Shown: in pieces, positions 1 through 16,382 of the stretch
How positions within the stretch are numbered: the first letter of the stretch is position 1
How the letters are laid out: each line of letters opens with the position of its first letter
Position numbers and translations under genes: made by a program
Notes under the pieces: model-generated
Database searches by the model: none
What the model was told of the DNA's origin: nothing
Seen by the model: only the letters and a program-made list of their open reading frames with translations
Source of the DNA: a virus
IMG/VR virus record: IMGVR_UViG_3300050821_018050
Location: 32,001 to 96,000 of that record
Strand: one strand, 5' to 3'
DNA: 64,000 nt

Positions 1-86
1 AAGATGAAGAAGATCAAACATCTGAAGATCCTCGTTATACAGACATGCCGAAGGCATCTGGAAGACTTGGGCCAGCAGATCAGTAA
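1..86 (+). CDS. 3' end of an upstream gene (acidic C-terminus), truncated by window edge
   Basis: Open frame from position 3 (DEEDQTSEDPRY...PADQ) ending TAA at 84-86, just before a CCTAATAT motif. Confidence 0.55.
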   Translation, partial: DEEDQTSEDPRYTDMPKASGRLGPADQ

Positions 87-87
87 A

Positions 88-95
88 CCTAATAT
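88..95 (+). promoter_or_regulatory. Putative late promoter CCTAATAT
   Basis: Octamer recurring upstream of + strand virion genes; followed by AAGGA SD. Confidence 0.65.
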
Positions 96-114
96 TTGAT
101 ATAAGGAATTGAAC

Positions 115-498
115 ATGCAGAACAAAAGACTTTATAATACTCCAAAAAGACCATCAATGGCAGTGCAAGGCGGGATCGCCGGTTATGCGGGTCGATTACA
201 GCCACTAAATACACCTAATGCGGATTTATCGACAGCGGTTAGTGTGGGACAGAGCATGGTAATAGCTCTTTATAATTCAGCCACTACCACTCAGTTTTAT
301 AATACGGGCATAGACAACACTGTTCTAGCTACTAATTTTACAAATGCAATGCCTATTCCACCATTGAGCTATTTGTACATAAATACATGTTCTGATTCTT
401 ATATTATTACCACTGCTGGTGTTTATGGTTTCTGGTCATATGATGAAGTTCAATATACCAACAATAATGATCAACCAAACCAATCTTTAAACGTATAG
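115..498 (+). CDS. Hypothetical protein, probably virion-associated
   Basis: ORF 109..498; AAGGAA SD favours ATG at 115; follows late motif. Confidence 0.65.
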   Translation: MQNKRLYNTPKRPSMAVQGGIAGYAGRLQPLNTPNADLSTAVSVGQSMVIALYNSATTTQFYNTGIDNTVLATNFTNAMPIPPLSYLYINTCSDSYIITTAGVYGFWSYDEVQYTNNNDQPNQSLNV

Positions 499-510
499 GA
501 TCATTACATC

Positions 511-1056
511 TTGAAACCCAAAAATAAATCAGAATTACTAATGCAACTTAAGTCAAAGTTGACCAAAGCTAAAATGGCTGAAGGCCCATCTGGAGCTGCG
601 ATGCCAAAAGCTCCAGCCCCGCCACAAGTGCCTAAACCCCCAGTAGCTCCCGGTAATAGCCCAGCAGCGCAGCAAGCCAAACAAGGACAAACTGCGGCTG
701 TAAAGATGGCTTCCGCTCCTCCTAAAGCACCCCAAGCTCCTAAACCTCCACAAATGGGTAAATCAGAAACTTACTTTTCGCATAAACGCAAAGAACTTAC
801 TATTTCTGAATCACAACTTTTTACAGAATGCGAACATTGCGGAGTGCCTCAATTCACAAAAACTGAACAAGGGCCATCTTATAAACCCTGTGCTTGTTTT
901 ATGGTTACTAAGAATGAACAATTTGTAACATTGAAAAAGAATGAAACAGGTTATGCATTAGATTTCAATCCTAAAGCAGATGCTGATTCGGTTAAAGCCT
1001 TTTTGCTAGCACTTAAGGCAAGATTACTGGTGACAAAGAAGTTCGGAGACGATTAA
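511..1056 (+). CDS. Head-region protein: Pro/Ala/Lys-rich N-terminus, C-terminal CxxC...CxC domain
   Basis: 181-aa ORF; PKAP/PKPP repeats; MGKSE motif; CEHC...CAC. Confidence 0.7.
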   Translation: MKPKNKSELLMQLKSKLTKAKMAEGPSGAAMPKAPAPPQVPKPPVAPGNSPAAQQAKQGQTAAVKMASAPPKAPQAPKPPQMGKSETYFSHKRKELTISESQLFTECEHCGVPQFTKTEQGPSYKPCACFMVTKNEQFVTLKKNETGYALDFNPKADADSVKAFLLALKARLLVTKKFGDD

Positions 1057-1057
1057 T

Positions 1058-2218
1058 ATGGAGCAAAAGCTCTGGGTCGTCATGTTTTCAACCCAAATTG
1101 CTGACCAGATTCGTAAATTATTGGAATCGGGCAAATTTACTGAAGCTACTACGACAAACGACTTACTAAAAGCATTTCAAGAAAAGATCTCATCAGAAGT
1201 TCAAAAATCTGGTGGGCATTTGCACGTTTTTTTACCAGAATGGATGGTAATACAAATCACCCCATCCTTAGCTGAGCAAATTCCAGAATTAGTTAAATCT
1301 TTTAATGATCAAGTCGGATACAGTTTAGCAACCGGAATCGGCCTAAATTTTGGAGAAGCTGTTAAAGCCGCTAAGATTTCTGAAGAAACTGGTGACATTC
1401 AATTATTTGAAGAAGATATGAGCAAATCCCTAGAACTTCCTCCTAATCTATTCGATTATGGTGATCAATCTATCGCAAATAATGATGAGAATACTGATGC
1501 TCAGGAACAAACTTATACAAAAGGGCCAGATTATAAAGCTTCTTTACAGTTAGCAGCCGAACAGCTTCAGGCGATTATACAACAATTGGGTGGCCAAGCT
1601 CAGCAAGATGCGGCTCAGCAAGTACAGCAAATTCAGCAACAACAGGCTGCACAACAACAGCAACAAGCGCAGGCTCAGCCACGAGATTTAGTGGATGCAT
1701 TGCATGGTGAACAAGTCGGCGACCGTAATCCTTACAGAGCCAAATCTGACGACAAAGATTCTGACAAAAAATCATCTGATAAGTCAGATGACGACAGCGA
1801 TACTGAAAAAGATGAAGAACCTACCGATGATTCTGACGGCGACGAAGTGCAACAAAAACTAGGCGGTGCTTTGCTTCACATAAAAGAGCAAATCCCTCAA
1901 TTAATGGATTTAGCAGAAAAAAATCCTGATGCTTTTAAACAGTCAATGACTTTGATCCAAAAACTTCTTTCTCTTACTAAGCAAACAAAATCTGGCGTTG
2001 AAAAAAGTGAATCGCAAGAACTAACCGGGTCTCTCAATAAAAGAATGTTACTTCCAGTAGGTTCAACTAAAAATCGTAAGAAAAAAGTTTTGGTTAATGG
2101 CAAGCAGGTTTGGAGATCCATGATTAGCGGCCAAGTACAAGACTTGAGTGGTCAAGCTATTTCTGGTAAATCTAGTAATGCGAATGCCGAAAAGGGTGCT
2201 CAGCCCAAGGAAGAATAA
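1058..2218 (+). CDS. Head-region hypothetical protein with Gln-rich and acidic linkers
   Basis: 386-aa ORF coupled to neighbours; MSKS, VEKSE motifs. Confidence 0.75.
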   Translation: MEQKLWVVMFSTQIADQIRKLLESGKFTEATTTNDLLKAFQEKISSEVQKSGGHLHVFLPEWMVIQITPSLAEQIPELVKSFNDQVGYSLATGIGLNFGEAVKAAKISEETGDIQLFEEDMSKSLELPPNLFDYGDQSIANNDENTDAQEQTYTKGPDYKASLQLAAEQLQAIIQQLGGQAQQDAAQQVQQIQQQQAAQQQQQAQAQPRDLVDALHGEQVGDRNPYRAKSDDKDSDKKSSDKSDDDSDTEKDEEPTDDSDGDEVQQKLGGALLHIKEQIPQLMDLAEKNPDAFKQSMTLIQKLLSLTKQTKSGVEKSESQELTGSLNKRMLLPVGSTKNRKKKVLVNGKQVWRSMISGQVQDLSGQAISGKSSNANAEKGAQPKEE

Positions 2219-2221
2219 TCC

Positions 2222-3163
2222 ATGGCTGACAATAAAGAATTTTCCATAAATATTAATATTGATGAAGTAGCCCAGAAGTTAGGGCAAGTGGCGGATACTA
2301 TTGCCCCCCAAATTCAAAAATCTGTAGAAAATCTTTCAGCCGCAACTCACGCAAAAATTGTAACTATAGTCAATGAAGCTTTCCCAGAGGATGAATTTAA
2401 GCGTCAATTTTATTTAGGCCAAGGTAAATATGCCAAGACCAACCTAAAATCAGATGAACATCCGTTGGTATTACCTGATTCTAAAAATTTACGTTGGAAT
2501 AAATTAAGCAATAATCTTTGGGTAGTTGAACTGGACCCTTCCGCAGAATGGCTAGAAATGGGTCGAGATAGAGTATCCATGGCAACTGAAGATTGGCTTT
2601 TAAAGCCCGGTCCAAGTCTTAAGCATGCCAAAGATGGATCCACTTATAAAAGCATTCCGATGCCAGCAGGGAAACAGGCATCTCATAGTAAGTCAGACAA
2701 GGGAGAAGCTTTTCTTAAGGATGCTTTGATGCAGTCTATAGAAAAAGCTGGAATTGATCTCAAGACCATACAGATGGATAACGCCGGTAATCCAAAATTA
2801 GGAATTACTGATAAAATTGATACCTCAGATTTTGAATGGCAAGGCAGCTCCATCGCAGGCGCTTTCTCAAGAGGTCGTACTGCAGAAGAATCAGCCGCCA
2901 CGGGGTTACCAGAGCATGAAGGACATTTCATGATTGGAGGAGCAGTCATGCTTCAAAGAGAAGATCCAGACGTTAAGGGCGGTGTAAGGCGTGACGCCGT
3001 TGTATTTCGCACAGTTTCAAGTAAACATTTAGGGGAAGACAGATGGATGGCTCCCGCAGTCCCCGGCATCCATGCTTTTGAGCAAGCTGAAAGATGGGCT
3101 AATGACCAATGGAATGCCATTGTAAAACAAATGGATGACCAATTCAATAAAGTTCTGGGGTAG
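2222..3163 (+). CDS. Putative neck/head-tail joining protein
   Basis: 313 aa; C-terminal FRTVSS...W..P motif typical of large-myovirus neck proteins; position before tail genes. Confidence 0.55.
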   Translation: MADNKEFSININIDEVAQKLGQVADTIAPQIQKSVENLSAATHAKIVTIVNEAFPEDEFKRQFYLGQGKYAKTNLKSDEHPLVLPDSKNLRWNKLSNNLWVVELDPSAEWLEMGRDRVSMATEDWLLKPGPSLKHAKDGSTYKSIPMPAGKQASHSKSDKGEAFLKDALMQSIEKAGIDLKTIQMDNAGNPKLGITDKIDTSDFEWQGSSIAGAFSRGRTAEESAATGLPEHEGHFMIGGAVMLQREDPDVKGGVRRDAVVFRTVSSKHLGEDRWMAPAVPGIHAFEQAERWANDQWNAIVKQMDDQFNKVLG

Positions 3164-3172
3164 ATTTTATCC

Positions 3173-3180
3173 CCTAATAT
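3173..3180 (+). promoter_or_regulatory. Putative late promoter CCTAATAT
   Basis: Intergenic copy 22 nt upstream of ATG 3203. Confidence 0.65.
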
Positions 3181-3202
3181 TGTATATTAAAGGTAGTACT
3201 AA

Positions 3203-4246
3203 ATGGGCGCTCTTCCTACAGATATTCTAATCCGAACCGCACTAGAAGCCGCAATTCAGGATATGCGCCGTAACGCATATTTGCTTAATGATTGTTTTGG
3301 TGGTCTGGCCAATGACTTGGTATCAAAAGCCGAGTATGGTCCTAAAGAGCCAGCCAAAGCTTTAGAATTTATCACAAAAAATAACATACCAGTTTTTTTA
3401 CCTTTTCGGCCAGATGGAATCACTGTACCTTGTGTATTAATTAATCAAATTGCTGCAAGTGAAGCATCTAACCGTGCTTCTTTAGCCGATGATGGTGAAG
3501 ACAATTCGTTTGATCCTGTTTTGGCTGGTCGACCAGTTCATAGAATCCTTCCAGAAATGAATCCTACTTACGATATCACTAATGGTCAATTAACTATTCC
3601 AACAGACCATAACACATATCAAATTGCTCCAGGCATGTTTTTGGTAACGGCTACCGGCAATAAATATCAAATTCAATCTACAATCGATGATCAAACCATA
3701 CAACTTCAAACGGGAATTACCGAGGATCTTCGAAATTCATATGTTACCCCAGCTCCAAATAATTGGTTAGCTCATAGAGAGCAATTATTTTTTACAGAAA
3801 GTTGGAGTATAACGGTTATTGGAGCAGAACCAGTTCAGGCAGGATGGTTGAGACAGTTCATTTCATATTGCTTAGGAAGATATCGCGAAGCATACTTAGA
3901 GGGTCGCGGTTTTGCGATCAGTTCATTTCAGTCAGGACCAGTAGTGACTAGCTCGGTACCTAATTGTTACGAAGCAAAATTTACATTAAGTGGAGATGTT
4001 GAACAAAGTTGGATTAAATATGTTGCTCCTAAATTTACTCGTGTAGAAGGCGGCATAAAAATCCTAGATATGCCTAAGACTCCCATTGTATATGAGGATG
4101 AGGCCGCTAAACAGGGATGGTCATCGGTTAATGATACATTTGTAAATACTTCAAGCAATGAAGCGGACATAGATACATTTGGTGATGCCACGCACGATGC
4201 TCTTGGAATAAATTCAGATGATATTGATTTGTTGGGGGAGGACTAA
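3203..4246 (+). CDS. Putative tail completion/neck protein
   Basis: 347 aa; context between neck gene and sheath region; late motif upstream. Confidence 0.5.
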   Translation: MGALPTDILIRTALEAAIQDMRRNAYLLNDCFGGLANDLVSKAEYGPKEPAKALEFITKNNIPVFLPFRPDGITVPCVLINQIAASEASNRASLADDGEDNSFDPVLAGRPVHRILPEMNPTYDITNGQLTIPTDHNTYQIAPGMFLVTATGNKYQIQSTIDDQTIQLQTGITEDLRNSYVTPAPNNWLAHREQLFFTESWSITVIGAEPVQAGWLRQFISYCLGRYREAYLEGRGFAISSFQSGPVVTSSVPNCYEAKFTLSGDVEQSWIKYVAPKFTRVEGGIKILDMPKTPIVYEDEAAKQGWSSVNDTFVNTSSNEADIDTFGDATHDALGINSDDIDLLGED

Positions 4247-6784
4247 ATGAGACCTCCTATGCGCGAAGGCGATACAGAAACTATGAATAATGGCGAAACA
4301 TATGCTGCCATAAATCATCCTGATCTCGGCTTAGTTTGGGATTTACATCCACAGCATCATGAAGAGAAAAAACAAAAGTTTTTGGTTCAAGCTAAACAAT
4401 GGCTTCAACACCAACCGCCAGAACATCATGAAGTGATCCGATCATTTGTAAATAAGATTTTAAAAGATCCCAACAAGCATTTACGCGTAGGCCAAGATAC
4501 TCGAACTGGCCCAACGGTACCTCGTTTCCGTCACATTAATCAAATGGTAAATGATCATCCTGACACAAAACTGACAGTACATTCACCAAATTCATTGACA
4601 TTGCAGGTTAAGCGTCATAGCCATGATACAAATAATGAAGGTTTATCCAATTTTCACTATGATATGACGAATGATGTTGTAAAATCAGAAGATTTATGGT
4701 ATAATGGAGTATATGGACTCTATAAAGACGAATTCGGGAATAACTATCGAGTCTCTCATGAAGCTGGGGCCTGCTCTATCTTCAGACGAAAGAGTGGCGA
4801 TTTGGGAAAAAGCGAATTTGGGTATGATCAGCTCGATGAACCAAGTACTAAACTTATCCTTGGAAGAATTCAGCCTCTTCTTAAATCTTTACGATACGGG
4901 AGCCATTCTGGAATTTCTGACCCCATCTCAGATGAAAGCGATAATGATCCATTTCAAGGTGACGGGTCATCGATACTAGAAAAAGGTGAAAAAGTGCATT
5001 CTGGAATTATGGTCGCAATACCAATTCCTACTGATATTGGCGAAAAGATTGCCGTTAAGAACGGCGAATCGCCAGATAAAATGCATGCAACGCTTCTATA
5101 TGTTCCTAAAGTTGGAGACAATGAAGAAGTATTTTATAAGATTGTTGCTATAGTGTCGGAAGCAGCCAAGACTTTTGCGCCATTGAAATCAAAAATTGCT
5201 GGGATCGGTCGTTTTAGTGCTAGTAAGTCAAGCGACGGCAAAGATGTCTTTTATGCTGGCTATGATGCCCCTGCATTACCCGAATTACGTCAATATATTT
5301 TTGATAAAGTAAAAGAATCTGGAATTGATTGGGAAAGTAAATTCGGATTCACTCCCCATATAACTTTAAAATATATTGGTACTGAAGACGAACTTCCACA
5401 AAATCGTCTTGAAGGCGAGGAATTCATTTGTGACAAAATCATCATCAAGTCTCAAAGCTTCAAAGAAGAAGAAACATTTACGGGAGATCGAGTTGCAAAA
5501 TCGGATCAACTGTCAGCTCATTTTAGTTCCCTTCTTAAATCTGGTGATGGTGGGGGTAAATTTATTCGAAGATTGCCCGATCAGCATAGCAATAGATTTG
5601 GGTCCGAGTGGTACAAAAAATCTAAAAAAGATAAACGATTAGAAATTCAAAAACCTGATCCGCATGATAAGATACCCTTAAAAACTTCCATTGCCGATGC
5701 CGTTGCTTCGGTTCTTGGCCCAAAAATTAAAAAAGAAGAGCTTGATAAGGGGGCGGCACAACGTCTTTTTCCCGTAGAATCCCCTAAACCGCTACCCACT
5801 TCTTCTAAATATAATTTAAAGGTTCCAGGAAGAGAAAAAGAAGAACAATGGCAATCTGGCATGAATGGTAGAGATTTGCTTCCTGTGCAGTCTAACAATG
5901 AAAGAGCAAGAGGTTTATTAAAATTAACTGGTCAAACTAATCATAGAAAAAATTCTAAAACCGGCGAAAATGAATTTTTATTGCATCGCGCTCACCATCC
6001 ATCTGAAGTTTTTGGTGAATCCCATAAAAGTAGATCTTCATCTTGGACACCACGTAAATGGGTAGCAGAAGAAGAAGCTAAAGTTCATCAAAAAGAACAT
6101 CCCTCTAAAATAACATCGGCATGGTTTCCAGAATCTGATATAAAACATTATACTTTTCAGACTCCAGGCGCATTTCAATCCGAAGATGGTAAACCATACC
6201 CAGAATTTGGATTTGAAAAAGAAGTGGTTATTAAGCCAGGACACAAAGGCATTATACACAGTCAAAATGATATTGTTAAAAAATCAGAATATTTAAGTAA
6301 AGCTGACGACTGGAAATCAAGTTACGAACAGCATTTATCGCAGCCCAACAAATTAATCCATTATTCTAAAAAGGCGGGATTAACATCTTTGGATCCAACT
6401 TTCCAAGGAACCGGCGCGCCGTCTGAAGAATACAAGCACGGATTACCTTCAATCCCCCGTACATATTTTTATCAACATGGCACCGAACCAGAAGATATTG
6501 TGAAACAAGGTGCAGTTGCAAAATATACGGCTACTTTAAAACCGGAACATAAAATTTATGACTTGGCCCACGATAAGGACAATATTCACCATAAATTAAA
6601 AGTAGCTTCTATGGGTAAACAAGTTAACCCAGGAGTAGTAAGTTCAGATGATTATTTGCATGCTATTAAAGCCGCAGGTTACCACGGCTTCAAAAATTCG
6701 GCGTCGACCCAGCTTCCTAATGTTATAGCACTTTTTCACGCCCATCCGATAGATTACGAGGAGACTGTCCATGAAAAAACGTAA
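4247..6784 (+). CDS. Polyvalent protein: 2H phosphoesterase (Acb1/LigT-like) plus two ADP-ribosyltransferase-like domains
   Basis: HATL (~5084) and HITL (~5357) HxT pair; LHR...SSWT...EKEVVI (R-S-E ART pattern, ~5970-6240); IHYS...G.G...TYFY...GYHG (ART-like, ~6350-6750); domains bounded by xxK[S/G/A] motifs. Confidence 0.7.
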   Translation: MRPPMREGDTETMNNGETYAAINHPDLGLVWDLHPQHHEEKKQKFLVQAKQWLQHQPPEHHEVIRSFVNKILKDPNKHLRVGQDTRTGPTVPRFRHINQMVNDHPDTKLTVHSPNSLTLQVKRHSHDTNNEGLSNFHYDMTNDVVKSEDLWYNGVYGLYKDEFGNNYRVSHEAGACSIFRRKSGDLGKSEFGYDQLDEPSTKLILGRIQPLLKSLRYGSHSGISDPISDESDNDPFQGDGSSILEKGEKVHSGIMVAIPIPTDIGEKIAVKNGESPDKMHATLLYVPKVGDNEEVFYKIVAIVSEAAKTFAPLKSKIAGIGRFSASKSSDGKDVFYAGYDAPALPELRQYIFDKVKESGIDWESKFGFTPHITLKYIGTEDELPQNRLEGEEFICDKIIIKSQSFKEEETFTGDRVAKSDQLSAHFSSLLKSGDGGGKFIRRLPDQHSNRFGSEWYKKSKKDKRLEIQKPDPHDKIPLKTSIADAVASVLGPKIKKEELDKGAAQRLFPVESPKPLPTSSKYNLKVPGREKEEQWQSGMNGRDLLPVQSNNERARGLLKLTGQTNHRKNSKTGENEFLLHRAHHPSEVFGESHKSRSSSWTPRKWVAEEEAKVHQKEHPSKITSAWFPESDIKHYTFQTPGAFQSEDGKPYPEFGFEKEVVIKPGHKGIIHSQNDIVKKSEYLSKADDWKSSYEQHLSQPNKLIHYSKKAGLTSLDPTFQGTGAPSEEYKHGLPSIPRTYFYQHGTEPEDIVKQGAVAKYTATLKPEHKIYDLAHDKDNIHHKLKVASMGKQVNPGVVSSDDYLHAIKAAGYHGFKNSASTQLPNVIALFHAHPIDYEETVHEKT
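4677..4705 (+). promoter_or_regulatory. Internal sigma70-type promoter TTGTAA-17-TATAAT with extended -10 TG
   Basis: -35 at 4677-4682, -10 at 4700-4705, ATG 7 nt downstream (4713), same geometry as other leaderless promoters in the window. Confidence 0.7.
4713..4979 (+). CDS. Overprinted 88-aa hypothetical protein nested out of frame in 4247..6784
   Basis: ORF track 4704..4979; own promoter with leaderless ATG 4713; amphipathic-helix-like sequence. Confidence 0.55.
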   Translation: MDSIKTNSGITIESLMKLGPALSSDERVAIWEKANLGMISSMNQVLNLSLEEFSLFLNLYDTGAILEFLTPSQMKAIMIHFKVTGHRY

Positions 6785-7589
6785 CATGGATTGGAAATTG
6801 GATCAATGCAAATTTGCAGCAGTTCAATATAAATCAAAAATTGAGTGGAAAATGAAAGATCATAAATCTTACGAAGCAGCGCGTAAAAATAAATGGATAA
6901 AAGAATGTTCTGAACACATGGTAAGACCTCAAGTGCATAATAAAAAATGGGATTTCGAATCCTGTAAAATAGAATCTTTAAAACACAAGACTAGGGGTAA
7001 ATGGCAAGCACATCACGCTTCTTCTTATCAGATCGCACAAAGGAACGGATGGCTAGAAGAATGCTGTTCGCATATGTCTAACGCAAGAAATCTCAACAAC
7101 ACTTGGACGTTGGATAGATGTAAGTTAGAGGCATTAAAATACACAACTAGATCCGAATGGTGGAGAACAGATGGGAAATCATATGACGCTGCCAGAAGTA
7201 AAAATTTTTTAGAGGATTGCTGCGCTCATATGCCAAAGCGTAGTCATTCTTCTATGCAAGAAAATATAATTTTATCTATAGTAAAAAATAAATTTCCACT
7301 CGCGTGCTCTCGTAAATTCGGTAAAAATAAAAAATTTCAATCCGGGAATAGATTCGAGCTTGATATTTATATTCCAGAATTGAATAAGGGTATTGAATTC
7401 AATGGAGAATATTGGCACAGAGAAGGGTTGTTGCGTAAAGGTAAAGACCCCGCAAAATACCATAGTTTGAAGCGAGATTTTTTTAAGAAACTATCCATAG
7501 ATTATATAGAAATTTGGGAAAATGAATGGGCAAAAAATAAAGATTTATGCCTCTTAAAAATTAATGATTTTTTAGGAGTTAGCTTATGA
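6771..7589 (+). CDS. Free-standing homing endonuclease-like protein (Cys/His repeats plus Vsr/DUF559-like nuclease)
   Basis: Three W..C..A.KY..W...SY..A...W..C.HM repeats; ELDIYIPELNKGIEFNGEYWH; paralog of 47474..48277. Confidence 0.75.
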   Translation: MKKRNMDWKLDQCKFAAVQYKSKIEWKMKDHKSYEAARKNKWIKECSEHMVRPQVHNKKWDFESCKIESLKHKTRGKWQAHHASSYQIAQRNGWLEECCSHMSNARNLNNTWTLDRCKLEALKYTTRSEWWRTDGKSYDAARSKNFLEDCCAHMPKRSHSSMQENIILSIVKNKFPLACSRKFGKNKKFQSGNRFELDIYIPELNKGIEFNGEYWHREGLLRKGKDPAKYHSLKRDFFKKLSIDYIEIWENEWAKNKDLCLLKINDFLGVSL

Positions 7590-9292
7590 AAAATCCATTT
7601 GATGACCATCACATTATTTTTAGTGCCGAAGGTGCTATGCATCCGACAAAACATCAAGTTGTTCCTTCTCATGAGGAAGTTTTAGATTATCTAAGATCGC
7701 AGGGAGAAAATGCTGTTGGGGTTCAAGGTCATTATGGCTCTCCAGAAAGATCCATTCTAGTTAATTCCCCTAAAAATCCAAAAGGCCTTCATCAGCTTGC
7801 TACCGATCTAGGTCAAGATTCTATTCTTGAATCCAAAAATGGTCAACATGCATTAACTTACTTAAACGGTGCCCAAAAAGGAAAAGTAATCACTGGAGAA
7901 GGAACTACATTCCATCCATTGAAGCCGGAAGACCTTTATACGACTATTAAAACCCCTAAAGGTGATGTGCATTTTAGTCATAATTTAAATTTTAGTCAAT
8001 CTGCAGTAAATAAATCAGAATCTGGAATGGGTGATCTATCTACTGACGAAGATACGAATGATTTGATGAATCGAGAAGAAAATAAATATTTCGTCAGTAG
8101 GGATCAATTGGATCTTCTTACCCAAACGGCCAAAGAAAATCTTAAAGAGGGTGATATTGATACGGAAAGTCGCTATAATACCAATAGAACTTTTTACATG
8201 GATAATAAAGATTTAGACTCCATGAAAGATGGATTAGATGGCATTAAGCCACGACTAAAAATCAGAGTAAGACAATATGCTCCGAATCATAAAGATTGGG
8301 AAAATATTGCTTATGTCGAAATCAAGGCAAAGAAGAAAGACGGGATGACGAATAAATGTCGCGTGCGTATTTATGCTGACGACATCGAACCTTTCCTCGA
8401 AGGAAAGCCTTTAGAAAATAGCAAAGATTTAATTAATCTTAATAAAGATATAACAAAAAAACTTTTGGATAAAAGAATTTTAGCGGTAAACAATATTGTT
8501 TCCACGTATGGATTTAAAAAACAAATTGAAGTTAGATATGAACGCAGAGCTTATACTGGCAAAAAAGTCAGGATTACTATTGACGATAATTTGAAATATT
8601 TGGATGCCACAGAAATTTCTCCAGAAAATAAAGAAGCTATTAAAAATACAGATGGCTGGAAGCGTATGGACAAGCATACAGATAAACTTCGCCGTAAAGA
8701 CTATTTAATAGTAGAAGTCAAACATCAAGGTGATGCGCCAAGATGGGTAAAAGATCTTTTGGATAAAACTGATGCAAAGGAAGTAAAATTTTCCAAATAT
8801 TGCGCCGCCGTAGCCTCGTATATTAAATCTGGCAAAAAAGAAAATAATATTAGTAGACTTAGTTTCGACTTTTCTGATAATCTGGATAAGACAGAAAGTT
8901 TAACTAAGATGCCAAAAGTTTTTACCGGAACACCAAAAAAGCCACATACTACTGTATATCGCATGCAAGATAAACATGGAGAAGGTCCGTATATGGCCGG
9001 AATTCCAGCCCTAGACAATCATGGTTCCTCTTCCTCGGCGCGAGGACTATCTACTCCTGATCCAAAATATGATCAAGGATTCAATGCCACTGATTTAAAA
9101 GTATTACACGATTCTCCTGCTGTTAAATTTGGGTTTGAAAAACCTGAACATGCGCATGAATGGTTTAGTCCAGATGAAATTGAAGAATTGGGGAATCACG
9201 GGTTTACACTTCAGCCCGTTAAAGCTGCGCACGTCTGGTCATCAGGTAAACAGGCATTTTATAAGAAGTATGTAAAGCCTAAAAAGCCTTAA
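7586..9292 (+). CDS. Polyvalent protein: DUF3293/SAM-lyase-like domain, VTC (CYTH-like) domain, unknown C-terminal domain
   Basis: GHYG..ERSILV...LGQDSIL; REENKY...YMD...KIRVRQY...EIK.K...YERRAY...RITID...VEVK...FSKY (VTC pattern); VNKSE and LDKTE at domain borders. Confidence 0.72.
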   Translation: MKNPFDDHHIIFSAEGAMHPTKHQVVPSHEEVLDYLRSQGENAVGVQGHYGSPERSILVNSPKNPKGLHQLATDLGQDSILESKNGQHALTYLNGAQKGKVITGEGTTFHPLKPEDLYTTIKTPKGDVHFSHNLNFSQSAVNKSESGMGDLSTDEDTNDLMNREENKYFVSRDQLDLLTQTAKENLKEGDIDTESRYNTNRTFYMDNKDLDSMKDGLDGIKPRLKIRVRQYAPNHKDWENIAYVEIKAKKKDGMTNKCRVRIYADDIEPFLEGKPLENSKDLINLNKDITKKLLDKRILAVNNIVSTYGFKKQIEVRYERRAYTGKKVRITIDDNLKYLDATEISPENKEAIKNTDGWKRMDKHTDKLRRKDYLIVEVKHQGDAPRWVKDLLDKTDAKEVKFSKYCAAVASYIKSGKKENNISRLSFDFSDNLDKTESLTKMPKVFTGTPKKPHTTVYRMQDKHGEGPYMAGIPALDNHGSSSSARGLSTPDPKYDQGFNATDLKVLHDSPAVKFGFEKPEHAHEWFSPDEIEELGNHGFTLQPVKAAHVWSSGKQAFYKKYVKPKKP

Positions 9293-9572
9293 GTTCAGGG
9301 AATAGAGTCAATACTAAATCACCATATTTATAAACTCTGTAGGCGTCTAATGTTGGCTCGTACTCAAAGGTTGCCTCACGATAGTTGCATTGATATTTTT
9401 TCCCAAAAATCACGCATAGAGCTATCCAGTAAGTAGTCTTAATATCAATTGTTTGTCGCCCGCGAGTTTTTCTGTAGGAATGGCTGAGAATATAATCAAG
9501 TATACGATTTTTAAGGTCTTTTTTTATCATGCAGCGCCTTAAGTTCTTTAAGAGATTGTCGCATTCCGTCAT
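9279..9572 (-). CDS. Hypothetical protein
   Basis: 97-aa ORF downstream of sigma4-like gene; start uncertain. Confidence 0.55.
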   Translation of the reverse strand: MTECDNLLKNLRRCMIKKDLKNRILDYILSHSYRKTRGRQTIDIKTTYWIALCVIFGKKYQCNYREATFEYEPTLDAYRVYKYGDLVLTLFPELKAF

Positions 9573-9813
9573 GAAATTTCTTAGTTTTGACTATACCGAT
9601 CAATAAACGCTGTCTTACGCGTTCTCTGGTAACTCCAAAGTCTTTGGCTATGTTATTAATCGGCTCTCCCATAGCGTAAAGCTTCATAGTCCATAATATT
9701 TCGATATTATATGGATTTCGTTGAAATAATGGTATGTAATGCAATACCTCTGATTTGGTAGGTATACCATCATTAAACCTACGCATAAATCTAAAAAACA
9801 TATTTCTAAGCAT
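9511..9813 (-). CDS. Small sigma70 region-4-like HTH protein
   Basis: IAKDFGVTRERVRQ motif; leaderless ATG 9813 lies 7 nt from the -10. Confidence 0.75.
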   Translation of the reverse strand: MLRNMFFRFMRRFNDGIPTKSEVLHYIPLFQRNPYNIEILWTMKLYAMGEPINNIAKDFGVTRERVRQRLLIGIVKTKKFHDGMRQSLKELKALHDKKRP

Positions 9814-9820
9814 TATATAA

Positions 9821-9849
9821 ATAATAGCATATTTGTCGGGATTTGTCAA
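9821..9849 (-). promoter_or_regulatory. sigma70 promoter TTGACA-17-TATTAT (leaderless)
   Basis: -35 at 9844-9849, -10 at 9821-9826, TG extension. Confidence 0.8.
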
Positions 9850-9850
9850 T

Positions 9851-9858
9851 CCTAATAT
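9851..9858 (+). promoter_or_regulatory. Putative late promoter CCTAATAT, back-to-back with the early promoter
   Basis: Recurring octamer; in-frame GTG at 9866. Confidence 0.65.
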
Positions 9859-9865
9859 TTTCATT

Positions 9866-11389
9866 GTGAAGCGTGATTATTTTAGACAATTACAGAAATC
9901 TAGCGGTTGGTCTGGGAGACAAAAATCTACTCCTCAAGCCGCCGATTCTATACATTTTTCACATCCAGAGCACGGCACTGTATCTATCATAAAAGACAAC
10001 AACCAATATCATGTTAAACACAATGGAGCCTTGGCTGGTATTCGCGGACAAAAAGGTGTATTTGATCATCCTAAATCTGCAGTAGAGCACGCAAAGGCCT
10101 ACATCGGTCATCTCAACGCTGGTCAGCCCGGCAAAACTATTTTTAATACTCCTTCGGCCCCGCATTTAGGTAAGGCCGATCCTTCGCCATCTCCAAGCCC
10201 TAATTGGGACGTTAATAAACAAGCTGCACAAAAATTTCAAGATGGATTTAATCAAGGCCCCGATATCAGCGGGGCTTGGAACAGCATTAAATCTGGCTTA
10301 GGCTTGGGGAAATCTTTCGGTACTACTGAAAAGATGCACCCTACCGGTAAAAATACTGAGATGGGTCAAATTGCTAGAAAGCAATCTTTACAAAAACTAA
10401 GAGCATTAAAAAAGCCAAATCTAGGGAAATCAGAGAATATTATGTCAAAATCAGCAATCGAACAAGCCAAAGACCTTATCAAAGCATTGAAAGAAAATCC
10501 ATCTGGATTAGAAGAACTTTCCAAAGCTGCAGTTCAACACATTAAAGGTGTGCATATGCCAATCGGCGCGGGCGCTCCTGGTATGTCTGAAATGGGAAAA
10601 ATCAATTCTCTTAAAACTGGTGGAAAAGAATTCGCGAATTCTGCTGCCAAGCATCAAGTAAAGCAAATTTCTCAGGCAGCTAAGACTCTTCCGAAGCCTA
10701 AGTTGGGTAAAGAAGAAATTAAAGAAATACCGCAAGAAGATAAAAAAGGCGACCAACCCTCTGGAACAGTTGGCGTAGAAAATCCTAAAAATGTTGATCC
10801 TTTAATGGATAAAACTGGCGCAAATCCAGATTATAAAGCACCGAGTGAAAAAGAATGCAAAGAAATGGTGAATAAAGCTTCTATGTCTGAAAAGGGTGTT
10901 CATAAGCCAGCATTTATGCATTCCAAGAAAAGCGGAACATCTGATGTTGGCGCTCGTATGGCACCGGGCGGAGCCAGTAAAGAGACCAATGCATATGCCA
11001 AAGAAGAACATAAAAAAGTACTAGCTGAATCTAAGGCTATGCCAAAACCTAATCTTGGTAAAGAAGAAATGGGCAAGTCAGCTTTCAAAACCCTTCAGCA
11101 TAAGATTGAACGCAAAGAAGGTTATTCGCCTGATCGTGCTGCAGCAATTACTGCTTCCATCGGTCGTAAAGAGCTTGGCCAAGCTGAAATGACTCGCCGC
11201 TCCAAAGCCGGTATGCATAAAAAAGCAGAAGGCAACCCAGATATGAAACAGGATGCTCAGCTTGGAGAACAAGTCGAACATGCTGTTGAAAGCCATATGA
11301 TGGCTAATGCCGGAGCTGAAGCCAAAGAAGGACATCCAATGGCTAAGGCCTATTTCAGGAATAAATTGGCTAAATGCGGAGTTAGATAA
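9866..11389 (+). CDS. Lys-rich internal head-type protein with internal repeats
   Basis: ORF 9833..11389, GTG 9866 preferred because 9833 lies upstream of the late motif; KP[N/K]LGK[S/E]E x3, KGVH.P x2; more than 10 xxK[S/A/E] motifs. Confidence 0.7.
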   Translation: MKRDYFRQLQKSSGWSGRQKSTPQAADSIHFSHPEHGTVSIIKDNNQYHVKHNGALAGIRGQKGVFDHPKSAVEHAKAYIGHLNAGQPGKTIFNTPSAPHLGKADPSPSPSPNWDVNKQAAQKFQDGFNQGPDISGAWNSIKSGLGLGKSFGTTEKMHPTGKNTEMGQIARKQSLQKLRALKKPNLGKSENIMSKSAIEQAKDLIKALKENPSGLEELSKAAVQHIKGVHMPIGAGAPGMSEMGKINSLKTGGKEFANSAAKHQVKQISQAAKTLPKPKLGKEEIKEIPQEDKKGDQPSGTVGVENPKNVDPLMDKTGANPDYKAPSEKECKEMVNKASMSEKGVHKPAFMHSKKSGTSDVGARMAPGGASKETNAYAKEEHKKVLAESKAMPKPNLGKEEMGKSAFKTLQHKIERKEGYSPDRAAAITASIGRKELGQAEMTRRSKAGMHKKAEGNPDMKQDAQLGEQVEHAVESHMMANAGAEAKEGHPMAKAYFRNKLAKCGVR

Positions 11390-11622
11390 TGAGCCGTAAG
11401 AAAAACCAAAATCAAGCAGAACTACAAATTGTAGGACAGCCTGAATTGGCAGCAAAAAAGATTGAAGTGGCTCCCATTAAGCCAGATATTACCTTTGAAT
11501 CATGGTTTATGCAAACCGGACTCAAAGTAGAACTAAAAAAGGTATTAATGAAGCATTTTAAGGCAAGAGGATTTTTAGATAGTAAAGAATTTGATAAAGG
11601 TTTATCTGATTTTGGTATTTAG
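11389..11622 (+). CDS. Hypothetical protein preceding sheath
   Basis: 77 aa, TAATG coupling. Confidence 0.7.
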   Translation: MSRKKNQNQAELQIVGQPELAAKKIEVAPIKPDITFESWFMQTGLKVELKKVLMKHFKARGFLDSKEFDKGLSDFGI

Positions 11623-11630
11623 TCAGAAGA

Positions 11631-11638
11631 CCTAATAT
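11631..11638 (+). promoter_or_regulatory. Putative late promoter CCTAATAT
   Basis: Intergenic, followed by AAGGAG SD and sheath ATG. Confidence 0.7.
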
Positions 11639-11665
11639 TAACCATAAGTTTTAAGGAGATTATAA

Positions 11666-14437
11666 ATGGCACAGTCAACAGTAACACAAGATGGGATTCA
11701 ATTAGTAGTTCCCGGCACTTACGTAAGCACTAATGTACAGTCAGGCGCTTCCGGTGCTGCAACTGCAGGAATCGTGACAATTGTCGGAGAAGCAGACCAA
11801 GGTCCAGCTTTTATTGATGAAACAGATTTAAACAATTCTGTTTTCACCCCTTCCCAATATAATCAAGTAGTTCAAAAATATGTTTCTGGTAATATTGTAG
11901 ACGCTTTCCGCGCCCTCATCACCGCTGCTAATGATCCAGCTATTGTTGGCGCGGTTAATCAAGTTCGTATTGTTAAAACAAATCCATCGACTGCCGCAGA
12001 CGCAACTATTACTTCTAATGGACTTTCATTTGCAACATTGACCGCAGATACTTTCGGAGCTGCTGGTAATTTGATCAAATACCGTTCACAGGTTGCAACA
12101 GCTGAACTAGCTCCAAGCACTGGTTCCATGTCTTATACCCCCGATTATGCGAGCCATGCTGCTAATTTTATCGTTAACGGCACTGCGACAGAATCTGTAT
12201 CAATCCCTTCAAAAACATCTTTAGCGGCATTGGCATCAGCCATTGAAAGTATTGCTGATGGTATTTTAGTATCAGGCCAATCAGAAATTCTTCCTGTAGC
12301 AGCTCTTGTTGGGATTACATTGTCGGCTTCTACTGCCAATGCATCCACTCTTACCCTTTCGTTACCTGCAGGTCAAGTATTTGCAGGAAGTCCAGCCGTA
12401 GGTGATTCTATTGTTATTCCAGCTACTGGGGATTTTGGCGCAACTGCAAATTCTGTTATCAGTAATTCCGGTGCTTCCAACATCGGAACGTATATTATTT
12501 CTGCTGTAGTCAATTCTCCAGCATCAGCTTCTCTAACATTAGCTCTTGCAAACGCTCCCGTAGGAATGACTCTTTCTGCGCAATCTGGAACCATCGTCGC
12601 TTCTCAACGTGATGTTATCCTTTATAAACCATTTGCAGTGAACAATTATACTGGCGAAGATCGCCATGCTATGGATGGTCTTGCCGGAACCTTTACTACT
12701 GTAATTTCTGGTCCAAATGTAACCGTCACCCCTCCAGCAAGCTGGACAGTTTCTCCACGTACTGGAGATATTGTTAAATTATCATCTTCATTCGCAGGAA
12801 TTAATCCAGGTTTCTATTTGGTTTCATCGGCTTCTGCTAATAGTTTAGTGATGGTTAGACAATCGATTGGAGCAGCCGGTACTTCTGGTTCAGCTACTGT
12901 TGGTACGATCAACTCAGGTAATGCGCCATTTATTGTTCTCAAACCAGCTATCGATGGCCTCGGTAAATCATTAGAAATGACCGGCGACCTGCAAAATCTT
13001 TTCAAGGATCCCGCACTTCGTAGTGCTGCCGCAACTATTAATACTGTAATGTTTTCTGCTGCTGAACTACGTAATACCATGACGGTTAGCCGTAATGCTG
13101 TTTCAGAATCGTTTACTTCTGGCGGAAATATCGTAATTAAGGTTGGATCAAGCCTTCCTTCGCCTACATTGACTGTTGGAACCAGCAGCATTACTCTTAG
13201 CTCAAATGCAACTGTAATTCTTACTGCTGCATTTAGCCAATTTCCTACTTTGCAAAACATGGTTGATTTGATTAATTCTCAAACAGGATTTTCAGCAAGT
13301 TTAGGTTCTGCTAAATACGCGAATATTTCTCCATCTGCTTTAGATGAAGGAACTTACGGATTGGCTACCAACTTAAGCGCTCAACCTGCTCGCATTAAAA
13401 ATGATGCAGCTTCATGGTTAGCAGCTATCAATGGATCAACCCTTGTGTCAGCTACTTTGATTGCAACCGGTGGATTACCTGAAACAGTTACTCCTGATCA
13501 ATTTTTGACTGGTGGGACTAAAGCCGGTACTACTGCCGCGCAAGTGGTTGCCGCTATCGACGCTTGCCAATCATTGGACACTAATTTCATCGTGCCACTC
13601 TTTTCTCGTGATGCGAGTTTAGATATTGCAGATGGATTAACCGATTCTTCATCTACTTATACTGTAGATGCGATCAACGCTTATACCCAAGCTCACGTAC
13701 TTTTAATGTCTCAAGTTAAAATGCGTAAGAATCGTATTGCAATTGTGTCTAAACAAGATACTTATGTAAACGTAAAAGAAGCTGCTGGAGAACTAGTATC
13801 TTTCCGCGTAGCATTAGCATTCCAAAGCTTTAAAAATGTATCAGCTGCCGGAGTAATTACCACTTATCAACCTTGGATGTCCGCAATTATCGCTGCTGGC
13901 ATGCAAGCTGCTGCTGGCTATAAAGGTATCGTAAAGAAATTTGCAAATATTTCAGGTGTAGTTGCTCAACCTGATTTTGATGCAAGTAATCCTGGCGATT
14001 TAGAAGATGGATTAGAAGCCGGTTTGTTGATCATGGAAAGAGTTAATACTGGCGGTTTCCGCTGGGTATCTGACCAAACTACATATTCAGTTGATAATAA
14101 CTTTGTGTACAATTCTTTACAAGCGGTTTATCTTGCAGATCTTATGACTTATAGCTTGATCGCTACTTTTGATCTTCAATTGGTGGGTAAATCTGTAGCG
14201 GAAATTTCTGCTCAAGCAGCTTTGGCGATTTTGGAAGCAGCAATGTTTAACTTCTTACGTCAAAAATGGATTGCACCGTCAGACGATGGTGCTCCAAAAG
14301 GATTTAAGAATGCTTCGGTACAAATTACCGGAGGCGTTTGTTCCATCGCTGTAGAAGCAAAACTTGCGGGTATTTTATACTTTGCTCCAATTGCTTTCAC
14401 TCTGAGTGAAGTACAACAATCGGCATCTAGTTCTTAA
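11666..14437 (+). CDS. Contractile tail sheath protein
   Basis: N-terminal PGTYV...IVGEADQGP; C-terminal sheath-like domain (GLL.ME...FRWV.DQTTY); precedes tube gene. Confidence 0.9.
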   Translation: MAQSTVTQDGIQLVVPGTYVSTNVQSGASGAATAGIVTIVGEADQGPAFIDETDLNNSVFTPSQYNQVVQKYVSGNIVDAFRALITAANDPAIVGAVNQVRIVKTNPSTAADATITSNGLSFATLTADTFGAAGNLIKYRSQVATAELAPSTGSMSYTPDYASHAANFIVNGTATESVSIPSKTSLAALASAIESIADGILVSGQSEILPVAALVGITLSASTANASTLTLSLPAGQVFAGSPAVGDSIVIPATGDFGATANSVISNSGASNIGTYIISAVVNSPASASLTLALANAPVGMTLSAQSGTIVASQRDVILYKPFAVNNYTGEDRHAMDGLAGTFTTVISGPNVTVTPPASWTVSPRTGDIVKLSSSFAGINPGFYLVSSASANSLVMVRQSIGAAGTSGSATVGTINSGNAPFIVLKPAIDGLGKSLEMTGDLQNLFKDPALRSAAATINTVMFSAAELRNTMTVSRNAVSESFTSGGNIVIKVGSSLPSPTLTVGTSSITLSSNATVILTAAFSQFPTLQNMVDLINSQTGFSASLGSAKYANISPSALDEGTYGLATNLSAQPARIKNDAASWLAAINGSTLVSATLIATGGLPETVTPDQFLTGGTKAGTTAAQVVAAIDACQSLDTNFIVPLFSRDASLDIADGLTDSSSTYTVDAINAYTQAHVLLMSQVKMRKNRIAIVSKQDTYVNVKEAAGELVSFRVALAFQSFKNVSAAGVITTYQPWMSAIIAAGMQAAAGYKGIVKKFANISGVVAQPDFDASNPGDLEDGLEAGLLIMERVNTGGFRWVSDQTTYSVDNNFVYNSLQAVYLADLMTYSLIATFDLQLVGKSVAEISAQAALAILEAAMFNFLRQKWIAPSDDGAPKGFKNASVQITGGVCSIAVEAKLAGILYFAPIAFTLSEVQQSASSS

Positions 14438-14447
14438 GGTATAGACA

Positions 14448-14834
14448 ATGGAAAAGCTTTCTAAAACTTCTTTACCCCCTAAGATTAAGTATCGTATCCG
14501 TAAATGGATCGAAACCATGAGACATGCAAAACCAAATATGTCTAATAAAGATCTTGCAGGTAATATTGTGAAGAAATTTGAAGAAGCGTTGGCCATTAAA
14601 GAACTTAAAAAGAATCAGGTGATGGCTTCCATGTACAAATCAGGTGGAATGCGCTTAGATTTTGGAATGAATGTCTCAGAAAAAGCTAAAAAAGCAGCTT
14701 TGGAATGGGCTAAGAAAAAAGGTTTACAGATTGAAACCAGTGAATTGGCTAAATCAGTAGCAAAGTCAAATAAGCTTGAATTCGGCGATTGCCGGACAGA
14801 TGAATGCATCAAACGCGTTATCTGGGAATGTTAA
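14448..14834 (+). CDS. Basic hypothetical protein with xxKS motifs
   Basis: 128 aa, SD AAGG; MYKS, LAKS, VAKS. Confidence 0.7.
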   Translation: MEKLSKTSLPPKIKYRIRKWIETMRHAKPNMSNKDLAGNIVKKFEEALAIKELKKNQVMASMYKSGGMRLDFGMNVSEKAKKAALEWAKKKGLQIETSELAKSVAKSNKLEFGDCRTDECIKRVIWEC

Positions 14835-14849
14835 CAAAGGGGAACGAAA

Positions 14850-15323
14850 ATGGCACAAAGTCAAATTTTTACAGGAGCGAGAGCCAAGCTTCTAATCAAC
14901 GGTAAAGCAGTAGGATTATTTGCCAACTGTAATTGGAGTGTTCGTCAAGAGAAAGTACCAGCTTTCATCTTGGGTGCTTATGCCCCGGTAGAAATTACTC
15001 AAACTACACAAGAAGCAATTACCATGGATCTTCGTGGTTATCGCGTAGTCGACAGCGGTCCATATGCTGTAGCAAATGTTACAATGCTTAAAAACTTACT
15101 CACCGAAGAAGATTTCTCTGTAGCGATCACTGATCGTCAAACAGGTAAAATGATTCTTCTAGTGCAAGGATGTAAGGCAACTGGATTTAGTTCCGGTGCA
15201 GCTTCTAAATCTGTTTCAGATATTAGCGTAAGTATTCTCGGCCTTCGTGCGGACGATGAATATACATTGTCACAAGGTGGCGATGGCGAACCGGGCGCAT
15301 CTACCCTCACTGATGGCAGTTAA
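14850..15323 (+). CDS. Tail tube protein
   Basis: 157 aa after sheath; TGARAKL.ING..VG...LG....EI pattern of myovirus tube proteins. Confidence 0.8.
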   Translation: MAQSQIFTGARAKLLINGKAVGLFANCNWSVRQEKVPAFILGAYAPVEITQTTQEAITMDLRGYRVVDSGPYAVANVTMLKNLLTEEDFSVAITDRQTGKMILLVQGCKATGFSSGAASKSVSDISVSILGLRADDEYTLSQGGDGEPGASTLTDGS

Positions 15324-15353
15324 TTAATCACCAATATTGTCTCAATAATATTG

Positions 15354-15387
15354 AAAGGCTCATCCTAAAGGGTGGGCCTTTTATTTT
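15354..15387 (+). terminator. Rho-independent terminator, probably bidirectional
   Basis: AAAGGCTCATCC-TAAA-GGGTGGGCCTTT hairpin plus T-tract between convergent genes. Confidence 0.8.
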
Positions 15388-15608
15388 ACGATGGGATAAA
15401 ATTCGGCCATAAAATGTTTAACTAATTTTCCGTTTTTGCCTTTATTAAATTTTGGTCTAGCATTCGCAAGATCATTGAAAAATTTGTTATACCAGCACCC
15501 TTTAGGCCCACGGGCTCTAGGTGCCAAAAATGCTAGTAGCCTAGCTTCAAACTCAGTTATCGTTGTATATGAAGGGTATGGATTGAATTTAAAACGTTTC
15601 GCCATCAT
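15381..15608 (-). CDS. Hypothetical protein
   Basis: 75 aa, last gene of antisense cassette. Confidence 0.55.
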   Translation of the reverse strand: MMAKRFKFNPYPSYTTITEFEARLLAFLAPRARGPKGCWYNKFFNDLANARPKFNKGKNGKLVKHFMAEFYPIVK

Positions 15609-15843
15609 GTTTCCAATAAATAGATTTTAGCTTAAAAATTTCAAAACGATCTAATTCGAAATATTCGTCATATTGTTCGATTCTAGCTTCCAATTTAAGT
15701 CTCTTTTTAAGAGACAGCCTCTCAAGTTGGTAATTTACTATTTTATCACATGCAAAGTAAAGTTGCTCGTAGGGGTCATTAGGGGAACTATTTTCCATTT
15801 TAGCTAAAAATGAATGAACCCTTAACAACAGCTCGGTGATCAT
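15589..15843 (-). CDS. Hypothetical protein
   Basis: 84 aa, ATGA overlap with CYTH gene. Confidence 0.6.
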   Translation of the reverse strand: MITELLLRVHSFLAKMENSSPNDPYEQLYFACDKIVNYQLERLSLKKRLKLEARIEQYDEYFELDRFEIFKLKSIYWKHDGETF

Positions 15844-16382
15844 TTTCTGCCCTTTACAAATAGTTGATAAATAGATTTTTTTTCATGATGAAGATCAATA
15901 GCTTTCTTAAGTTTTTTTGTGATGCGCTCGACCTTTTTAATGTCCCTAGCTTCTATTTCTAAGAAAATACGGTGATCTCCCTGGACTTTATAAATACTTA
16001 CATTGGTGTCTTTTTTATCTAAGAAAAATACACTGTACCTTTTACGAACAGATCTTGCTGGTAACCCAAAAAATTGAGTACATATTGCTATCGCCTGGGC
16101 TGGGTCTTTAACGTCAACATCAATCTCTACTCTATTAGTAGTACTACCCTTATCACTATGTTTTACCGTCATTTGGGCTTCACCATGTGGCATCATTCTA
16201 ACTCTAGCAAAATCCGCTTTAATTGACTTAGGGGTATTAAAATAAATATCAGTTGAATCACCGTGAATGATTTTTTTAATTAATTTTCGAAGACAGCATT
16301 TCACTGTTTTAGCAGTAGCGTCGTATCTCCAGCCATTTTTAATTTCAAATTTTTTTTCAATTTCTCGATTACGATAACCCAT
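15840..16382 (-). CDS. CYTH/triphosphate tunnel metalloenzyme (class IV adenylate cyclase-like fold)
   Basis: EIEKK, DIYF, RVR, TVK, RVEI, RKR, FLEIE motifs. Confidence 0.8.
   Translation of the reverse strand: MGYRNREIEKKFEIKNGWRYDATAKTVKCCLRKLIKKIIHGDSTDIYFNTPKSIKADFARVRMMPHGEAQMTVKHSDKGSTTNRVEIDVDVKDPAQAIAICTQFFGLPARSVRKRYSVFFLDKKDTNVSIYKVQGDHRIFLEIEARDIKKVERITKKLKKAIDLHHEKKSIYQLFVKGRK

Follow-up and report, generated by a model that had tools for sequence, protein, structure and literature searches.

A conserved gene nested in the +1 frame of a myophage polyprotein, a candidate inhibitor of the upstream His/Arg domain

Introduction

In the MuF polymorphic toxins of phages (Jamet et al. 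2017, PMC5576092), a protein of the head region carries a candidate toxin domain with a small ORF right behind it, the arrangement in which immunity genes are usually found. Polyvalent proteins (Iyer et al. 2017, PMC5512222) combine several unrelated domains in one chain, are encoded in the virion gene region and enter the host with the phage DNA; the word "overlap" is absent from the main text of that paper. In the embedded spanins Rz/Rz1 of phage lambda (PMC6139136), one gene is embedded in the +1 frame of another, and the two gene products bind each other. Spanin genes are known both embedded and separated, and read-through of a stop codon is one proposed route (PMC6139136). In the intragenic toxin-antitoxin system Rpn (Zhong et al. 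2023, PMC10327210), the antitoxin is made inside the toxin gene from an internal start and blocks the toxin by direct binding. Here we compare with these systems a phage locus in which a small gene lies out of frame within a multi-module polyprotein gene.

Results

The outer polyprotein and its setting

The stretch of DNA analysed, hereafter the window, has a length of 64,000 nt and is part of a 159.8-kb record of an uncultured virus. Terminase, portal, major capsid and tail sheath genes are present in this record, which identifies the virus as a myophage. The outer ORF (Table 1) is placed between the capsid and tail sheath genes and is open over 845 codons, in agreement with the open outer frame of the initial annotation. 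The encoded protein is modular, since homologues match its residues 3–245, 245–427, 491–681 and 698–841 separately. Residues 245–427 form a 2H phosphoesterase module, and together with the three other, separately distributed modules this gives the chain the disparate domains that are typical of polyvalent proteins; the polyproteins of relatives add GNAT, NUDIX, mCpol and VTC domains. A MuF domain was found in the 845-aa protein neither with Pfam nor with PHROGs, and the ART-like assignment of its later modules obtained no Pfam match. The same 845-aa protein is encoded in independent IMG, ENA and Logan assemblies of the phage.

Table 1. Coordinates of the features in the window and membership of the partner families
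Feature	Position	Strand	Remark
Outer ORF, 845-aa multi-module polyprotein	4247..6784	+	alternative start 4259
Unnamed ~145-aa His/Arg domain, outer aa 3-147	4253..4687	+	alignment of 20 homologues
Cleavage-like motif VVK↓SE closing the His/Arg domain	4676..4690	+	putative cleavage
-35 box TTGTAA, inside V-V-K codons	4677..4682	+	TTGCAA at the same place in L002, L013
Extended -10 (TG-n-TATAAT)	4697..4705	+	outer frame W-Y-N; relatives C-Y-N
Outer-frame read-through linker with LGK↓SE, LLK↓S, LEK↓G	4712..4987	+	Gly/Arg/Ser-rich
Nested +1-frame gene, 88 aa, six-helix protein	4713..4979	+	predicted leaderless mRNA
2H phosphoesterase domain after the linker	4988..5506	+	Pfam LigT_PEase E 3.4e-6; PHROG 14859 E 2.6e-15
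Partner family I			window, L002, L013
Partner family II			L014, L016, L017
Partner family III			L018, L019, L029, L032, L031

The motif L-x-K↓S/A/T (the arrow marking the putative cut) occurs about 1–2 times per 100 aa in the portal protein, in the proteins at the protease and scaffold positions and in several polyprotein-type proteins, and the capsid protein has it at residue 10; tail and replication proteins contain 0.1–0.5 per 100 aa. These motifs may be prohead-protease sites, and the outer protein has L-x-K↓S motifs in common with the head proteins.

Several neighbouring ORFs are also of interest. A 272-aa ORF (window 6771–7589) that overlaps the end of the outer gene has repeated Trp/Cys segments and a nuclease-like C-terminal motif; judged by eye and without Pfam support, it looks like a homing endonuclease. 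The 568-aa protein encoded at 7586–9292 contains a VTC domain (E 2e-35) flanked by K↓S-type motifs, and at locus L016 a VTC domain comes after the nested gene within one polyprotein. The 518-aa ORF at 9833–11389 is the densest in K↓S motifs (11). Its start is overlapped by a minus-strand site (9813–9849) with TTGACA-17-TATTAT and, 7 nt later, an ATG opening a 100-aa ORF.

A gene in the +1 frame behind a promoter-like site

The elements that had been pointed out in the initial annotation are all present: the -35 box, a 17-nt spacer ending in TGG, the TATAAT box (4700–4705) and, 7 nt past it, the ATG at 4713, from which 88 codons are open in the +1 frame of the 845-aa ORF up to the stop codon TAG (4977–4979). 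A second in-frame ATG at 4704 overlaps the -10 box. The GGAG at 4706–4709 lies just 3 nt before the ATG at 4713 and is therefore too close for a normal SD sequence. The location of the gene in a linker, running from VVKSE (outer residue 144) to LEKG (244) with LGKSE (186) and LLKS (211) retained, was likewise described correctly, and the inner stop codon falls in the Leu codon of LEK↓G. The share of Gly, Arg and Ser is 25–49% in the outer linker versus 12–27% upstream, and cleavage-like motifs, counted by a looser pattern, number 2.8 per 100 aa in the linker versus 0.8. The outer linker seems to be constrained mainly to remain open and to hold cleavage-like motifs.

Neither the promoter nor the length of the ORF beats chance by itself, since 40 promoter-like sites were observed in window positions 1–16000 with 44.9 expected, and 37 nested same-strand ORFs of at least 45 aa are present in the genome. 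In combination the two features do exceed chance: among these 37, the ORF at 4713–4979 is the sole net-acidic member with a 10/12 promoter, and synonymous recoding of the outer protein leaves the +1 frame open with a probability of 0.006. Genome-wide, 12 of 41 promoter-like sites have an ATG 5–7 nt past the -10 box, and all other distances up to 30 nt together account for 5. Leaderless geometry is therefore a habit of this phage, in line with the earlier remark that the site resembles its other promoters, and is shared by 11 of its ordinary small genes. The nested 88-aa sequence contains no cysteine, and AF2 folds it into six helices (pLDDT 81.7, pTM 0.73). Annotation had missed the gene of every nested protein that was looked up.

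Other nested reading frames were noticed in the same genome. Outside the window, at G000:C1:29712-30700, TTGATT-17-TATAAT with an ATG 6 nt on lies inside a head-type ORF and would yield an in-frame, shortened product of 317 aa from an early-type promoter. A 91-codon +1-frame ORF with an SD-like motif (window 29020–29295) lies within the 681-aa ORF at 27519–29564; it is basic, lacks a good promoter, has a chance of 0.011 of being open and may be a shadow. Two large minus-strand genes each contain a nested +1-frame ORF, one of 138 codons (G000:C1:145816-146232) and one of 83 (G000:C1:153095-153346). Both are basic, lack a promoter and would be open by chance with a probability of ~0.001–0.002 each.

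Selection follows the inner frame

Judged by sequence comparison, conservation in the relatives L002 and L013 is the decisive support for the nested gene. In both, TTGCAA-17-TA(T/C)AAT-7-ATG is retained and the inner ORF is open (88 and 91 aa, respectively), at a distance at which the upstream domains share 46–51% identity and third positions are saturated. The inner protein is 42% (L002) and 32% (L013) identical to that of the window, and the outer frame over the same DNA only 24–27%. Nucleotide identity peaks at inner position 2 (0.56–0.65) and is lowest at inner position 3 (0.39–0.44), which is the level of the saturated third positions upstream. The z values are 20–34 for the inner versus 4–7.5 for the outer frame in group I, and 10–22 versus 1–2 in group II. 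Divergence by codon position across the overlap thus tracks the inner frame, with the outer linker as the passenger. The W/C-Y-N...Y-G motif of the outer frame falls on the extended -10 box and the start codon and was for this reason not counted as conservation of the protein in its own right. L013 itself is a phage-type contig in a Planctomycetaceae UBA969 MAG; it is possibly mis-binned and is therefore not taken as evidence of a host.

Dual coding, as claimed from the window, is accordingly real insofar as the inner ORF, the promoter spacing and the start codon are all kept in two relatives while the outer frame is open. Two of the ways in which the claim could have failed, disruption of the inner ORF in close relatives and an outer ORF produced by assembly, are contradicted by the open homologous ORFs in L002 and L013 and by the continuity of the outer frame in independent assemblies. 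The term "overprinted" does not hold for the inner gene: it is the inner frame that bears the selection, and a related partner family has a free-standing member (L031), so that the outer linker is the newer reading. We regard the nested gene as almost certainly real.

The upstream His/Arg domain

Across the 20 homologues of the domain, W31, H78, R95, H96 and H124 are invariant and R93, P114 and R123 nearly so, and AF2 models the domain with a pLDDT of 93.5. With its clustered His/Arg surface, the domain may be an enzyme for substrates that bear phosphate. The domain is found at differing positions in polyproteins of 400–2350 aa, and the modules downstream of it and the nested gene vary (2H, ParB-like, VTC and others).

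Neither the domain nor the nested protein had a usable match in Pfam, PHROGs, PADLOC, PDB sequences or ESM Atlas features, and tblastn of GenBank phages found neither of them. The family I protein of the window had no match in protein databases, as expected for nested genes that are not called, and a pattern scan of metagenome DNA returned six sites, all unrelated. In fold searches of the domain, with BECR RNase, ART and PD-(D/E)XK folds considered, the best hit (Z 5.0, rmsd 2.1, 43 aligned residues) was a generic sheet, no Foldseek E fell below 0.001 and the Atlas TM was at most 0.40; identity with BECR RNases was not borne out. The nested protein gave a best Z of 3.3 with no convincing match, and for both proteins the lack of a fold match does not establish a new fold.

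The partner gene accompanies the domain

A nested partner gene occurs in ten distinct loci and falls into three families (Table 1), the outer frame being uninterrupted in all ten. All of the first eight long-linker loci have a +1-frame ORF of 48–91 aa that starts 15–36 codons past the last RH of the domain. Five test loci were fetched later, of which three are distinct, and nested ORFs are present in two of these three (L029/L030 and L032/L033). At control positions in the same genes such an ORF occurs in 4.4% of cases and an acidic one in none. Similarity is clear within the families and weak between them (E 2.7e-4 and probability 42 for I–II, E 0.004 and probability 8 for II–III), so that a shared origin of the three is tentative. 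At L014 the nested gene is preceded by an 11/12 promoter of its own, TGGACA-18-TATAAT, and by an SD sequence; the starts in L016, L017 and L029 are SD-led.

In the complete or near-complete genomes that were checked, there is one domain and one partner each, and the two are adjacent. Partners are mostly acidic and domains mostly basic across the loci; the window pair is slightly acidic on both sides, and charge complementarity is not evident there. By back-translation, P0005, P0010 and P0028 can encode partner homologues (z 7.6–8.2), which is compatibility rather than proof. In the unrooted domain tree the partner families follow the domain clades, as kin would anyway.

The initial annotation had suggested an antidote or regulator of the enzymatic domains of the polyprotein. 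An antidote remains the leading idea, but its likely target is the upstream domain, which every locus has, whereas the module downstream differs between loci. The 2H and ART-like domains were discarded as targets, since their occurrence is not tied to that of the nested gene.

Four homologues of the domain (P0012, P0013, P0043 and P0052) have the conserved residues but no nested partner, which is the main objection to the antidote reading. The linkers of P0013, P0043 and P0052 are too short for a partner. For P0012 (L020), no partner was found within the 5.3-kb contig; this protein is sister to two family II carriers (92/86), so that the partner may have been lost or lie elsewhere. The locus itself (L020:857-5242) is a close relative of L017 with the same NUDIX and mCpol context, the conserved residues intact and no nested partner.

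An un-nested form of the pair

At L031:134-3112, the His/Arg domain closes a 929-aa NUDIX/GNAT polyprotein that stops at 2923, and a free-standing acidic gene of 61 codons starts at 2927, 3 nt after the stop, so that both parts are separate genes in the same frame. The 61-aa protein and the one nested at L019 are homologues (38% identity, E 2e-5, z 7.8). A small ORF (<150 aa) immediately behind the domain is thus nested in ten loci and free-standing in L031. This layout suggests that nesting arose via shifted-frame read-through of the partner gene as modules were added, which is the direction that we propose. Of the earlier idea that a gene was absorbed as a cleavable linker, absorption is supported, and the linker is probably cleavable. 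L031 is also the simplest pair for testing.

A predicted complex of the two proteins

The complex of the window domain with the nested protein scored 0.82, versus 0.00 for the best of three controls. Two of three runs succeeded (0.83, 0.82 and 0.00), the runs share at least 3% of contacts, and the partner pLDDT is at least 66. The mark applied was reached by 58 of 80 solved complexes and by 2 of 110 mismatched pairs, a calibration that is roughly applicable here, our own alignments having been used. On the side of the domain the interface includes W31, R93, R95, R123 and H124; on the side of the partner it includes residues 35–38 and 57–70, the part common to families I and II. No similar solved complex was found for the pair, which makes it less likely that the model reproduced a known structure. 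According to these models, the nested protein is likely to bind the upstream His/Arg domain.

Discussion

We consider the chances somewhat better than even that the nested gene encodes the cognate inhibitor, an antidote or immunity protein, of the upstream His/Arg domain. Our best reading is that a toxin-immunity-type cassette was swallowed by read-through and that the antidote is made early from a leaderless mRNA, the outer protein being probably toxic and carried in the virion. From the comparison of loci, the starting point would be a conserved coding gene travelling with the His/Arg domain, arranged as in the one un-nested relative, where the domain ends the protein and a small acidic gene follows the stop. 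The outer frame would then have read through the partner gene and gained modules, leaving a stop-free linker with Lys-Ser cleavage-like motifs. The 88-aa protein is predicted to cover the conserved Trp/Arg/His face of the domain. The polyprotein would presumably be a late product that is cut at L-x-K↓S, is packaged and enters the cell with the next infection; there the domain would act on a host target, probably nucleic acid or a nucleotide. Late synthesis, cleavage, packaging and injection are proposed from the context, with T4 Alt and polyvalent proteins as analogues (PMC5512222). Host sigma70 RNA polymerase may make the leaderless antidote mRNA early, in which case the effector would be limited to a short window and the infected cell protected when the precursor is made later. 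A broader proposal, which we put forward as possible though with the chances somewhat against it, is that the cleavable head polyproteins of large myophages acquire toxic cargo domains through read-through of the immunity gene, which is kept in the +1 frame with an early leaderless promoter as a timer that switches the injected effector off, with a new effector fold and a new inhibitor fold.

The same linkage and the same complex model would also fit a nested protein that binds the domain as an activator, an adaptor or a folding or packaging chaperone, a reading that we consider unlikely but the most serious of the alternatives. Lambda Rz/Rz1 is a cooperative nested pair (PMC6139136), and the occurrence of the domain without a partner in four homologues is easily explained if the domain is harmless. 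Against a helper of this kind, the model buries the conserved residues instead of leaving them exposed, and a helper of late assembly would hardly need an early-type promoter. The partners, moreover, diverge quickly, as immunity proteins tend to do.

Rather less probable is a real early gene that came to lie behind the domain by chance and is carried along, with a separate host target and no binding to the domain. The leaderless geometry is indeed the same as that of the ordinary small genes of this phage, and linked inheritance alone can hold neighbours together, in agreement with partner families that follow the domain tree. But the linkage survives changes of the downstream modules and of the position in the polyprotein, each genome has a single copy of each, always adjacent, and the complex passes its controls.

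We find it improbable that a programmed +1 frameshift fuses the domain to the inner frame and gives an alternative C-terminus in a self-inhibited fusion. At several loci the inner frame is open for some codons upstream of the ATG, and the binding model would also fit an arrangement in cis. The conserved promoter and start codon in group I and the SD-led starts in L014, L016, L017 and L029 speak against this; in the window the inner frame has a stop at 4680–4682, no common shift motif was found by eye, and L031 encodes both parts as separate genes. Least probable by far, and largely refuted, is an inner ORF that is a chance shadow of the outer protein or an outer read-through produced by faulty assembly or sequencing. 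Chance alone yields many promoter-like sites and 45-aa nested ORFs, and no annotated homologue was found, but the codon-position signature, the conservation and the confident AF2 model favour the inner frame, and the outer frame is continuous in the ten distinct loci and the independent assemblies.

The preferred reading, that of a cognate inhibitor, can now be set beside the known systems. The literature searched, with incomplete coverage, yielded no description of out-of-frame immunity genes in phage polyproteins. Both states of the pair are present in the sequence data, which outlines how a toxin-immunity cassette can leave its place at a gene end and come to lie within a polyprotein, with the antidote retained. 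The two proteins are small, fold well in prediction, belong to no known family and are open to a simple toxicity-and-rescue test. The Gly/Arg/Ser-rich linkers of phage polyproteins can, furthermore, conceal real genes that annotation misses.

L031 matches the layout of the MuF phage toxins exactly. In the window, by contrast, no MuF domain was found in the outer protein, the domain in question lies at the N-terminus, and the small gene, which has its own putative promoter, is hidden in the +1 frame. Different from described polyvalent proteins, the His/Arg domain and its partner match neither Pfam nor PHROGs. Spanins are cooperating membrane lysis proteins, whereas the nested protein, having no cysteine, has no lipobox and so lacks the outer-membrane lipoprotein feature of the embedded spanins, and its gene has its own putative promoter. 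RpnS is translated in frame, as the C-terminal domain of a defence nuclease of bacteria, while the partner in the window is out of frame, unrelated in sequence and phage-encoded. In de novo overprinted genes the nested frame is the newer and less constrained one; here the inner frame is the constrained one. In its proposed function the nested pair resembles the toxin-immunity pairs of phages, in its construction Rz/Rz1 and in its intragenic antitoxin Rpn, but it departs from each of them in a defining feature.
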